A stretch of DNA of 64,000 nucleotides, taken from assembly GCF_017348835.2 (NCBI RefSeq), contig NZ_CP071375.1; one strand, given 5' to 3'. Positions 2,291 to 5,236 of this stretch are shown in pieces. Source of the DNA: Escherichia coli. GTDB taxonomy: Bacteria > Pseudomonadota > Gammaproteobacteria > Enterobacterales > Enterobacteriaceae. The notes under the pieces were generated by a model, which saw only the letters and a list, made by a program, of their open reading frames with translations, ran no database searches and had not been told where the DNA came from. The number at the start of each line of letters is the position of its first letter. The stretch's first letter is position 1. The position numbers and the translations under genes were made by a program.

Positions 2291-2316
2291 GCGCCATCGT
2301 TAGATGGCGCTTTTTA
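2291..2316 (+). terminator. intrinsic terminator downstream of ydcL
   Basis: GC hairpin gcgccatc-gtta-gatggcgc followed by TTTTTA, 9 nt after the ydcL stop. Confidence 0.7.
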
Positions 2317-2805
2317 TCCGGTGCGCCGTAAAACCCCGTCCTTCAGGGCGGGGATATAAGGCGCGGTTTTCCACCTAACAGGTGTTTGCTGTTGTTCAAT
2401 GTATTGGCGGATGACGGATATTGGCGCACCTCCGCAGCTACTGGCAAAATAGCCAGGACTCCACAAAACGCCTTTGTAGTAATACCTGACTGCAATATCT
2501 GGTCGATCTCGTCGCAGTAACCTACCCGATACGCCTTTGAGGCTGTTTACCAGACTGGATATCGCCAGTTTGGGAGGTTAGTTAATTAACAAATGGACGT
2601 GATCTGGTTCGCCATCCATTTCAACCAGTTCAGCTTCAAAATCAGCACATACATTTGAAAAGTAACTGCGTAGTTTTTCTGTCGCGTCATGGTCAAAAAT
2701 CTGGCGTCGGTATTTGGTGACAAAGACCAGGTGAACATGCATCAGGGAAACACAATGCCTTCCACGCCGGATATCGGTTTCTTTTTTCACAGACCAAAGT
2801 ATCAT
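2314..2805 (-). pseudogene. IS200-family TnpA (Y1 HuH transposase) interrupted by one in-frame TAA
   Basis: 75-aa ORF 2578-2805 with HuH-type motifs (HVHLVFVTKYRR, DHVHLL) stops at TAA; the same frame continues downstream with TnpA-like C-terminus (SLKGVSGRLLRR, LWSPGYFASSCGGAPISVIRQYIEQQ). Confidence 0.65.
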
Positions 2806-2812
2806 TTGACCT

Positions 2813-4021
2813 GTGAAACGATTACAGGCATTTAAATTCCAGTTAAGACCAGGTGGTCAACAGGAGTGTGAAATGAGGCGCTTCGCAGGCGCATGTCGTT
2901 TCGTTTTCAATCGTGCTCTGGCACGTCAGAATGAGAATCATGAGGCAGGTAATAAATACATCCCTTACGGGAAAATGGCTTCCTGGCTGGTTGAGTGGAA
3001 AAATGCCACTGAAACGCAATGGCTTAAAGATTCTCCCTCACAGCCATTGCAACAGTCACTGAAAGACCTTGAGCGGGCTTACAAAAACTTCTTCCGGAAG
3101 CGGGCTGCTTTTCCCCGATTCAAAAAGCGGGGACAGAATGATGCATTCCGCTACCCGCAGGGCGTTAAGCTCGATCAGGAAAACAGCCGTATTTTTCTGC
3201 CGAAACTGGGCTGGATGGGCTACCGGAATAGCCGTCAGGTCACGGGTGTTGTGAAAAATGTCACTGTCAGCCAGTCCTGCGGTAAGTGGTACATCAGTAT
3301 TCAGACAGAAAGTGAAGTATCCACTCCGGTTCACCCTTCAGCATCAATGGTCGGGCTGGATGCTGGCGTGGCTAAACTCGCCACGCTGTCAGATTGCACA
3401 GTCTTTGAGCCTGTAAACAGTTTTCAGAAAAACCAGAAGACGCTGGCGAGACTTCAGCGACAGTTAAGCCGCAAGGTCAAATTCAGCAACAACTGGCAGA
3501 AGCAGAAACGCAAAATACAGCGACTGCATTCCCGTATCGCAAATATCCGCAGGGACTACCTTCACAAAGTCACAACGACCGTCAGCAAAAACCACGCAAT
3601 GATAGTCATTGAGGATTTGAAGGTCAGCAACATGTCAAAGTCAGCAGCGGGTACGGTCAGCCAGCCGGGGCGCAATGTCCGGGCAAAATCAGGTTTAAAC
3701 CGTTCGATACTGGATCAGGGCTGGTATGAAATGCGCCGCCAGCTTGAGTACAAGCAGCTCTGGCGTGGCGGTCAGGTGCTTGCTGTTCCGCCAGCGTACA
3801 CAAGTCAGCGTTGCGCGTGCTGTGGTCATACAGCGAAAGAAAATCGCCTGTCACAAAGTCAATTCAGATGCCAGGTATGTGGATATACAGCGAACGCCGA
3901 TGTAAACGGCGCTCGTAACATTTTAGCGGCGGGGCACGCCGTTCTTGCCTGTGGAGAGATGGTGCAGTCAGGCCGCCCGTTGAAGCAGGAACCCACCGAA
4001 ATGATTCAGGCGACAGCCTGA
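2813..4021 (+). CDS. insQ: TnpB (IS605 OrfB family, RuvC-like RNA-guided nuclease)
   Basis: 402-aa ORF with GTG start; RuvC-I GLDAGV, RuvC-II IVIEDL, zinc finger CxxC...CxxC, Ruv[12 protein letters not shown]. Confidence 0.9.
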
Positions 4022-4060
4022 ACGTAGCAGGGATCCACGTCCTTCAGGGCGTGGAGGATG

Positions 4061-5236
4061 TCAATATCGGTTTCTGTCAGCGATTAAATTCAACACCACG
4101 TAACAAACGCCTCCGGCAATTAATCCCCAGAACGCAGAACCAATCCCGACCAGCGTCAATCCACTTGCCGTTACCAGAAATGCCACCACCGCCGCGTCGC
4201 GCTCACGCTCATTATGCAGCGCCTGATACAAACTTCCGCCAATGGTACTCAACAGCGCCAGACCTGCCAGCATCTGGATCCAACTTACGGGCAGGGCAGC
4301 CATCATCCCGGTAATGGCACTACCAAACAGACCTGCGAGCAAATAGAAAATGCCTGCAACGGCAGCTGCCAGCCAACGTTGATCTTTATCCGGATGCGCT
4401 TCCGGGCTTTGGCAAATAGCCGCGGTGATTGCCGCAATACCGACGGAATAAACGCCGAAAGGGGAAAAAACCAGTGCCAGCAATCCAGTAAATACAATTA
4501 ATGGCGAAACAGGAGCCGAATATCCGGCGGCTTTCATTGCTGCGATACCCGGTGCGTTTTGCGATGCCATCGTCACCAGAAAAAGGGGGAGTGCAACGCT
4601 CAGGCTGTGAGCAAACGCAAAATCAGGGGTAATATAAGTGGGGAGAACGGGTTTAAAGACAACATCAGTTGTGACAACGTCACCTTGCGCGATAACGATC
4701 ACGATCCCAATAATCATCGCGGCAATTACCGCATAGCGCGGCGCAACGGCCTTGGTTGCCAGCCATACCAGCAACATACTGCCACACAACGTAAATTGAC
4801 CGTCCAGACTGGCAAACGCCTGTAAACCAAAGCGTAATAAAATCCCGGCAAGCATTGCCGCCGCAAGCGAGTGCGGAATAATGCACATCAGACGAGCAAA
4901 GAGTCCCGTTATGCCGCAGAGGACTATTAACGCGTTGGTGACAATAAAAACGCCGATGGCTTCGTTAAGTGTTAGTCCCTGCAATCCGGTGACCAACAAA
5001 GCCGCGCCAGGCGTTGACCATGCGGTGAGAACAGGTACGCGATACCATAATGTCAGAGCCAGCGTACTGACGCCCATTGCCAGCCCCAGCGCCGTCATCC
5101 AGCCAGAGATTTGTGCAGTGGTGGCTCCGGCGACAATCGCTGCTTGCCAGATTATTGCCGCTGAACTGGCGTAGCCAATTAATACCGCCAGAAACCCCGC
5201 CAGTAGCGTGGGTGGAGGAACAGAAAACAGACGCAT
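4061..5236 (-). CDS. ydcO: YdcO BenE-family inner-membrane transporter
   Basis: Polytopic membrane ORF; start placed at the ATG preceded by GAGGT (MRLFSVPPP); the longer ORF start at 5359 runs into upstream sequence and is less likely. Confidence 0.85.
   Translation of the reverse strand: MRLFSVPPPTLLAGFLAVLIGYASSAAIIWQAAIVAGATTAQISGWMTALGLAMGVSTLALTLWYRVPVLTAWSTPGAALLVTGLQGLTLNEAIGVFIVTNALIVLCGITGLFARLMCIIPHSLAAAMLAGILLRFGLQAFASLDGQFTLCGSMLLVWLATKAVAPRYAVIAAMIIGIVIVIAQGDVVTTDVVFKPVLPTYITPDFAFAHSLSVALPLFLVTMASQNAPGIAAMKAAGYSAPVSPLIVFTGLLALVFSPFGVYSVGIAAITAAICQSPEAHPDKDQRWLAAAVAGIFYLLAGLFGSAITGMMAALPVSWIQMLAGLALLSTIGGSLYQALHNERERDAAVVAFLVTASGLTLVGIGSAFWGLIAGGVCYVVLNLIADRNRY

Follow-up and report, generated by a model that had tools for sequence, protein, structure and literature searches.

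Two subterminal hairpins at the Escherichia coli ydcL-ydcO locus as the probable end palindromes of IS609, an IS200/IS605 family element

The DNA analyzed here is a stretch of 64,000 nucleotides (64 kb) from Escherichia coli (contig NZ_CP071375.1 of RefSeq assembly GCF_017348835.2), read 5' to 3' on one strand, the + strand, and referred to below as the window. It includes the E. coli ydcL-ydcO locus, at which a copy of IS609, an insertion sequence (IS) of the IS200/IS605 family, is inserted. The element carries a pseudogene of tnpA, encoding a Y1/HUH transposase, and an intact tnpB (insQ); RefSeq labels the two "IS200/IS605 family transposase" and "RNA-guided endonuclease InsQ/TnpB." The two genes are divergent, presumably as in IS605, whereas we take the corresponding pair of IS608 to be co-directional. 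Close to either end of the element lies a short imperfect hairpin, and our data point toward these two hairpins being the left and right imperfect palindromes (IP_L and IP_R) of IS609; we put the probability of this reading at roughly 0.93. End hairpins of this kind are already known biology of a curated element in a well-understood family. The boundaries, the geometry, the conservation of the stems, and the covariation of guide and cleavage sequences were observed directly; binding and cleavage by TnpA and expression of an RNA are inferred by homology with related elements. The features are compiled in Table 1.

Table 1. Features of IS609 and its immediate flanks at the ydcL-ydcO locus (positions in the window)
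Feature	Position	Strand	Sequence, basis, or remark
Target motif TTTAT, left flank, outside the IS	2313-2317	+	TTAT at 2314-2317 is the left cleavage site (C_L); TTTAT is the predicted transposon-adjacent motif (TAM) of TnpB
tnpA pseudogene (Y1/HUH transposase)	2314-2805	-	Pfam Y1_Tnp; comparison with the intact copy (locus L003)
IS609 element, 1747 bp	2318-4064	+ (active "top" strand)	Empty sites, copies at other loci, curated MG1655 feature
Outer left stem, 5' arm GCGCC	2323-2327	+	Pairs with 2360-2364; predicted from the fold of single-stranded DNA
G_L, left guide AAAA	2330-2333	+	4 nt 5' of the hairpin foot; pairs with TTAT under the IS608 rule
IP_L, left subterminal imperfect palindrome	2334-2353	+	CCCCGTCC TTCA GGGCGGGG; T2339·G2348
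IP_L 3' flank ATATAA, then outer-stem 3' arm GGCGC (2360-2364)	2354-2364	+	
tnpB (insQ), intact, 402 aa, RNA-guided nuclease gene	2813-4021	+	Pfam, structure homology, RefSeq name
Predicted ωRNA scaffold	3914-4064	+	tnpB 3' end plus right end; RNAalifold
G_R, right guide GGAT (GAAT in most relatives)	4031-4034	+	Pairs with TCAA
IP_R, right subterminal imperfect palindrome	4035-4054	+	CCACGTCC TTCA GGGCGTGG; T4040·G4049
Right-end tail, 10 nt	4055-4064	+	AGGATGTCAA; right cleavage site (C_R) TCAA at 4061-4064 forms the final bases of the IS
Right flank, predicted ωRNA guide	4065-4080	+	TATCGGTTTCTGTCAG; by analogy with TnpB of ISDra2 and ISGst

The boundaries of the element were derived from genomes with and without it. 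In a megablast search with positions 2300-4100, 4858 of 5426 complete E. coli genomes contained at least 80% of the query. Where a copy sits at another locus, the match is confined to window positions 2313 to 4064 or 4067, and element-free genomes match from 4065 or 4066 on. Two empty ydcL-ydcO sites read ...GATGGCGCTTTTTAT/TATCGGTTTCTG... (slashes mark junctions), that is, ...GCGCTTTTTAT/TATCGG at the joint, and in the window, where the site is filled, the left junction is ...CTTTTTAT/CCGGTGCG... and the right one is ...GGATGTCAA/TATCGG.... No bases were gained or lost between the two states, so there is no target-site duplication, and comparison of the termini, CCGGTGCG... and ...GGATGTCAA, shows no inverted repeat. 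Five independent insertions were found in E. coli: ydcL/ydcO, a TetR gene near ytfB, yfaY/yfaV, gltX/yfeD, and yhgE/hslO. The left junction is TTTAT/CC(G/A)G at all five, with a variable base upstream of TTTAT, and the right junction is ...GGATGTCAA/ at all five, followed by unrelated flanking DNA. The same right terminus ends every E. coli copy that bears a right end, except the copy on plasmid pCRECTL20-3 (L009; handles of this form denote loci of the comparison), which ends in TCAC, and it also ends most of the relatives. The curated feature "insertion sequence:IS609" of E. coli MG1655 (NC_000913.3, 1503161..1504908) has the ends ggcgctttttat/CCGGTGCG and GGATGTCAA/tatcgg, which are identical to the window at 2318 and 4064. 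Empty sites, insertions, and the curated feature thus share one boundary pattern, TTTAT/CCGGTG...GATGTCAA/, and the two hairpins sit within the element at 16 nt from its left end and 10 nt from its right end, in agreement with the curated ends against which a preliminary description of the sequence had proposed to check them.

The left hairpin, ccccgtcc-ttca-gggcgggg, and the right hairpin, ccacgtcc-ttca-gggcgtgg, are 20 nt each. The preliminary description had placed the left one exactly as we find it; for the right one the sequence was right and the position, 4036-4055, was one base too far to the right. Each stem has eight pairs with a T·G pair at the equivalent position, and the only difference between the two is compensatory (C2336:G2351 versus A4037:T4052). 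Direct comparison therefore bears out the common core and the shared T-G wobble that had been described. Exactly two exact matches to the 14-nt core CGTCCTTCAGGGCG exist in the window; both lie on the + strand (2337-2350 and 4038-4051). With up to two mismatches allowed, four matches were found versus 0.29 expected, and none of 100 shuffles gave four. Furthermore, both end regions, folded as single-stranded DNA, are more stable than shuffled sequences (left, -14.1 kcal/mol, z = -2.75; right, -7.7 kcal/mol, z = -2.08). Many short palindromes of high GC content exist in the intergenic DNA of E. coli, and one locus of our comparison (L011) has a run of other palindromic repeats, so a chance match or a generic chromosomal palindrome, similar to repetitive extragenic palindromic (REP) sequences and unrelated to the IS, has to be considered. 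However, in 64 kb the core is confined to the two ends, is absent from the empty sites, and travels with the element to five loci and to other genera. This alternative is refuted by these observations, and its probability is practically nil.

In IS608 of Helicobacter pylori, TnpA recognizes subterminal imperfect palindromes, and cleavage occurs outside the IS at TTAC, 19 nt 5' of the IP_L foot, and at TCAA, 10 nt 3' of the IP_R foot. The cleavage sites base-pair with guide tetranucleotides, AAAG (G_L) and GAAT (G_R), which lie 5' of the respective feet (A+16 with T-3, A+17 with T-4), and the target and G_L are further joined in base triples with bases on the 3' side of IP_L. From this we took the rule that cleavage-site positions -4, -3, and -1 pair with guide positions 2, 1, and 4, where the pairing of G+19 with C-1 was extended by inference. 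The window has the corresponding parts. Next to each hairpin, where a conserved cleavage tetranucleotide had been suggested as a check, we find TTAT, which lies in the left flank outside the IS, 16 nt upstream of the left foot, and TCAA, the four bases that close the element, with its end exactly 10 nt 3' of the right foot. The left guide AAAA pairs with T-4, T-3, and T-1 of TTAT, and the right guide GGAT pairs with TCAA by G:C at -3, T:A at -1, and G·T at -4. The 3' flank of IP_L, ATATAAGG, is near-invariant among relatives, and its bases may, as in IS608, take part in triples with G_L and the target. A ninth pair of the right stem, T4034-A4055, was considered and rejected; it is possible in the E. 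coli copies and impossible in the Photorhabdus group. T4034 was assigned to the guide because column 9 covaries with the last base of the element in the Photorhabdus group.

A scan of one genome per species, with intact TnpA as the query, gave 43 loci, mostly from Enterobacterales and a few distant, from which 30 left ends and 33 right ends were obtained by anchored extraction in the orientation of the window. Left-end pairs were counted in a fixed register with the variable spacer (16 nt in the window, 15 to 17 nt among relatives) removed, because MAFFT alignment of the full left ends misplaced the target tetranucleotide for spacers of 15 and 17 nt; three of the fixed-register rows are gapped at guide position 1, and the G:C pairs of L035 and L051 are not in those counts. 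The hairpin cells are paired in 96.4% of cases at the right end, where two pairs show compensatory change, and in 93.8% at the left end. The most variable pair of the stem is UG (13), AU (7), CG (7), or UA (2) on the right and UG (18), CG (4), or GC (1) on the left. Guide and cleavage site change together: position -3 and guide position 1 form GC in 31 of 32 right ends and invariably UA in left ends, position -4 and guide position 2 form AU (19) or GU (13) on the right and again invariably UA on the left, and position -1 and guide position 4 form UA (26) or GC (5) on the right and UA (14), CG (6), or GC (5) on the left, with one exception (L010). The left ends accordingly combine TTAT with AAAA, TTAC with AAAG, and TTAG with AAAC, and two distant elements combine TGAT with CAAA or CATA; the right ends combine TCAA with G(A/G)AT and, in the Photorhabdus-type elements that make up the five GC cases, TCAC with GAAG. 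Over the whole structure, 96.8% of the cells are paired at the right end and 92.0% at the left end, compared to 38 to 63% and 40 to 51%, respectively, after sliding of the partners, and the covariation was reached by none of 500 shuffles at either end. Boundaries, cleavage tetranucleotides, and the covariation of both the stems and the guide/cleavage pairs support the suggestion, already made in the preliminary description, that these are the TnpA-recognized end hairpins of an IS200/IS605 element.

The T·G pair, at stem position 6 or 3, is kept in nearly all hairpins. It is missing from one of 30 left ends (a T·T mismatch) and from four of 30 scorable right ends (three with stems that are Watson-Crick throughout and one with another mismatch), and its position can move (CCCCGTCC-GGGCGGGG versus CCTCGCCC-GGGCGGGG). 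The imperfection of the stem is typical, not obligatory. On the bottom strand, the T·G pair becomes a C·A mismatch, which would fit a top-strand specificity. The left end has an additional, predicted outer stem that, together with the guide and the ATATAA flank, surrounds the hairpin. It is 85% paired in 26 distinct relatives, with one compensatory pair (16 CG, 5 UA). If formed, this stem of 5 bp would sequester the guide tetranucleotide; it encloses the left guide, the hairpin, and ATATAA in the form of a 6 by 6 internal loop.

The closest known system is IS609 of MG1655 (yncK/tnpA pseudogene and insQ/tnpB): the element and its ydcL-ydcO location are the same, as is the gene content, and tnpA is likewise dead. 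Identity to the window is about 98.3% over the 1801-bp query 2300-4100, short flanks included. The ends are identical base for base except for one base of the left hairpin: the K-12 copies (L004 and L054) have a G-to-A change that gives a mismatch (CCCCATCC), and the right hairpin is unchanged. In the window, the left hairpin is intact, and the lesions of tnpA (a nonsense codon at 2578 and a deletion near 2378) are its own. With IS608, IS609 shares imperfect palindromes on the same strand at both ends, a C_L outside and a C_R inside the element, guides of 4 nt, the absence of a target duplication, a right-hand TCAA 10 nt from the IP_R foot, and, in most relatives, the right guide GAAT. It differs in the target, TTAT/TTTAT rather than TTAC, and in the outer 5-bp stem around the left guide and hairpin. 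With ISDra2 of Deinococcus radiodurans and ISGst2 of Geobacillus stearothermophilus, it shares a homologous TnpB and, by prediction, an ωRNA that overlaps the 3' end of tnpB and the right end, as well as a TAM that equals the target of the transposon. The target of ISDra2 is TTGAT instead of TTTAT, and TTTAT is the experimentally shown TnpB TAM of ISGst2.

By homology with IS608, ISDra2, and the ISGst elements, the following mechanism can be proposed. When the + strand is single stranded, each hairpin would fold and be bound by one site of a dimeric Y1/HUH TnpA. The guides would then pair with TTAT on the left and TCAA on the right, thereby placing the cleavage sites in the active sites. Cuts after T2317 and A4064 would free a single-stranded circle and leave a donor resealed as TTTAT/TATCGG, and the circle could re-insert 3' of a new TT(T)AT. 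A second role may fall to the right hairpin as the last stem of an ωRNA, transcribed from the 3' end of tnpB into the flank from 4065 onward. Such an RNA would guide TnpB to the emptied joint, TTTAT plus TATCGGTTTCTGTCAG, and the cut made there by TnpB could lead to the element being copied back.

The state of tnpA in the window bears on this model. Both fragments of the gene match Pfam Y1_Tnp, as does the intact protein of L003 (WP_000604943.1, 143 aa; 1.8e-41); the L003 copy served as a base-by-base reference. Two lesions set the window copy apart from L003: a nonsense codon at 2578 (Tyr76 to stop) and, near 2378, a 1-bp deletion that removes the natural stop, so that the frame continues to a TAA at 2314-2316, within the TTTAT target. 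Since tnpA is a pseudogene here, the ends could be mobilized only in trans by an intact copy elsewhere. The left hairpin had been described as lying inside the extended tnpA reading frame. This is literally correct (the minus-strand open reading frame 2314-2466 spans the hairpin), but it is an artifact of the deletion in a dead copy: in L003 the gene stops before the left hairpin, at about window position 2375, and the 1-bp deletion is the only reason for the overlap, which is without functional meaning.

The same region invites a different explanation, in which the hairpins are transcription terminators, the left one for tnpA (on the minus strand, a stem followed by TTTTAC) and the right one for tnpB. 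On the minus strand, the natural tnpA stop is indeed followed after about 20 nt by the left hairpin and then by TTTT. However, a terminator and promoter scan of both strands flagged neither hairpin; after the left stem, which on the minus strand contains a C·A mismatch, the run of T is only four long, and the right hairpin is followed by AGGATGTCAA, without a T-run, and would have to be read through by the ωRNA. Furthermore, termination leaves the identical hairpins on the same strand at both ends and the covariation with the cleavage sites unexplained. We consider a terminator function extremely unlikely.

In contrast to tnpA, tnpB is intact in the window. The protein has the Pfam domains HTH_OrfB_IS605, OrfB_IS605, and Cas12f1-like_TNB (a zinc ribbon), and its best natural relatives of solved structure are those of ISDra2 TnpB (8bf8, 8exa, and 8h1j; E = 2.3e-54), with homology over the full length; this is the architecture of a RuvC-type nuclease. 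Its translation contains GLDAG, VIEDL, NADVNGA, and two CxxC motifs, which, judging from the translation, may hold the catalytic residues. The ratio of nonsynonymous to synonymous change (pN/pS) between copies is about 0.2 to 0.3 (window versus L004/L054 of K-12, L003, and L005 to L008), calculated from small counts; compared to K-12 at the same locus, where tnpA is a pseudogene in both copies, tnpB has 12 synonymous and 8 nonsynonymous differences. In L005, tnpB has a premature stop four codons before its end.

The last 150 nt of the element yielded an RNAalifold consensus over 14 relatives with 44 pairs, 13 of them with compensatory changes, in a region that is partly coding. The right hairpin is the last stem of this fold, and a long-range helix joins ACAUUUU to AGGAUGU in the tail. 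The right hairpin is therefore predicted by this model to be also the terminal stem-loop of the TnpB ωRNA. The empty allele consists of TTTAT plus TATCGGTTTCTGTCAG, and TATCGGTTTCTGTCAG, the putative guide, is unique in the window. In an Rfam scan by E value, sub-threshold matches were obtained to HgcC (RF00062; 22.2 bits versus a gathering score of 50 bits), aligned to 4034-4063, to sot0042 (RF02656; 18.9 versus 88 bits), which matches the right and the left hairpin, and to RAGATH-18 (RF03064; 25 versus 45 bits) at 3948-3991. The terminal hairpin and tail of HgcC (ccCGcccUUuAgggCGggGAGGAGGUCA) are what aligns to the right end, a resemblance and not a membership. All three families are RNAs overlapping the tnpB 3' end, those of HgcC and sot0042, as we take it, in archaea.

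These data raise the question of whether the right hairpin owes its maintenance chiefly or entirely to RNA structure, as the final stem of the ωRNA, its likeness to the left hairpin being a relic. Consistent with this, the window copy and K-12 both have a dead tnpA, in contrast to an intact tnpB (pN/pS about 0.2), the 3' end of tnpB and the right end form the multistem fold with its 13 compensatory pairs, the weak Rfam matches to tnpB 3' RNAs cover the right hairpin, and in K-12 it is the left hairpin that is mismatched (CCCCATCC) and the right one that is unchanged. However, the left hairpin lies outside any ωRNA and yet is equally conserved, with the same covariation of guide and cleavage site, and the covariation of G_R with C_R (26 UA, 5 GC) is a DNA-level feature of TnpA. 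Since the TnpA and RNA roles are compatible, the RNA would be an added function and not a replacement, and an RNA-only role is very unlikely. A related thought concerns the ydcL-ydcO copy itself, which about 90% of the complete genomes of E. coli carry. Both copies examined at this locus (the window and K-12) have a dead tnpA, and for this reason it is imaginable that this copy is no longer a transposon but a retained TnpB-ωRNA module, although we regard this as rather improbable. If so, selection on the RNA, which could serve either selfish retention or the host, would keep the right hairpin, and the left end, with its conserved outer stem around the guide, would decay or have a regulatory role.

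We return to the assignment of the hairpins as IP_L and IP_R of IS609, against which several points have to be held. The left spacer of 16 nt (15 to 17 nt in relatives) is shorter than the 19 nt of IS608, and the irregularity of the stem is a T·G pair where IS608 has an extrahelical T; the exact determinants of recognition may therefore differ. In the window, position 2 of G_R makes a G·T instead of an A:T pair, and the ends may no longer function since tnpA is dead. L010 pairs TTAC with AAAA and so breaks the covariation rule, and in a few relatives the right hairpin is perfectly Watson-Crick, so the wobble itself is not essential. The relatives share ancestry, and the shuffle controls therefore overstate the significance; for the most distant ones (L035, L051, and the Photorhabdus group), the motif itself contributed to placing the boundaries. 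Even so, the covariation follows the pattern expected from the mechanism of IS608. At gathering thresholds, Rfam has no family in the IS609 element, the matches given above lying well below those scores, and literature searches on IS609 and on insQ plus TnpB found neither a study of IS609 ends nor activity data for its TnpB.

The assignment matters little beyond annotation: it fixes the boundaries of IS609, its target and TAM (TTTAT), the cleavage sites, and the guides, and it exposes the overlap with tnpA as an artifact. The comparative set is a clean natural example, within this clade, of retargeting by covariation of guide and cleavage site (TTAT, TTAC, TTAG, and TGAT). The principle has already been shown experimentally for IS608 and the ISGst elements, and covariation of the TAM and the transposon-encoded motif (TEM) with the DNA guide has already been reported for the ISGst families.

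At the ydcL-ydcO locus, IS609 lies in the T-tract of the ydcL terminator (GCGCCATC-GTTA-GATGGCGC-TTTTTAT, window 2291-2317) and also interrupts the stop codon of the convergent ydcO (4061-4066). Without the IS, YdcO ends in ...ADRNR followed by TAA; with it, the protein ends in ...ADRNRY followed by a TGA that derives from the last bases of the IS (TCA). The net GC skew of the + strand over the whole window is +0.023, as on a leading strand, and the top strand of IS609 would thus lie on the lagging-strand template. This is the orientation favored by IS200/IS605 elements, for which a single insertion is weak evidence.

Several relatives depart from the common layout. The element on plasmid pCRECTL20-3 (positions 1400-2760; 95% identity) has tnpB only, lacks tnpA, and has a rearranged left-end region; its right hairpin, CCACGCTC-CGAA-GGGCGTGG, has the T·G shifted by one position, and its terminal TCAC stands beside a GAAT guide. 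L010, from Escherichia sp. MOD1-EC7003, has TTTAC beside its AAAA guide and a degraded left hairpin (CCCCATCC-GGGCAGGG). In two copies of Buttiauxella warmboldiae (L023 and L025), the guide segment GTAAAx of the left end is replaced by TTATAT, which makes this end a 20-bp palindrome without any mismatch (TGTGCCTTATATCCCCGTCC-GGGCGGGGATATAAGGCACG); TTTAC still precedes it. Near-identical elements of the IS609 family were also found on very short contigs of unlikely hosts (L022, L045, L046, and L051), attributed to Streptomyces mutabilis and to metagenome-assembled genomes of Collinsella, Paceibacterota, and "Chlamydia trachomatis," which may reflect contamination or misbinning. Several contigs, among them those of L017, L030, and L044, end exactly at IS boundaries.

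A 12-nt direct repeat, ATATCGGTTTCT, occurs exactly at 2771-2782, in the tnpA coding region, and at 4064-4075, at the right junction and in the flank, where it overlaps the predicted guide. The repeat is probably due to chance, since TTTAT is missing upstream of the internal copy, which falls within conserved coding sequence of tnpA. Elsewhere in the window, the only Rfam match above its gathering score is SECIS_3, a selenocysteine insertion element, at 46789-46847 on the + strand (84.3 bits), presumably within a formate dehydrogenase gene.

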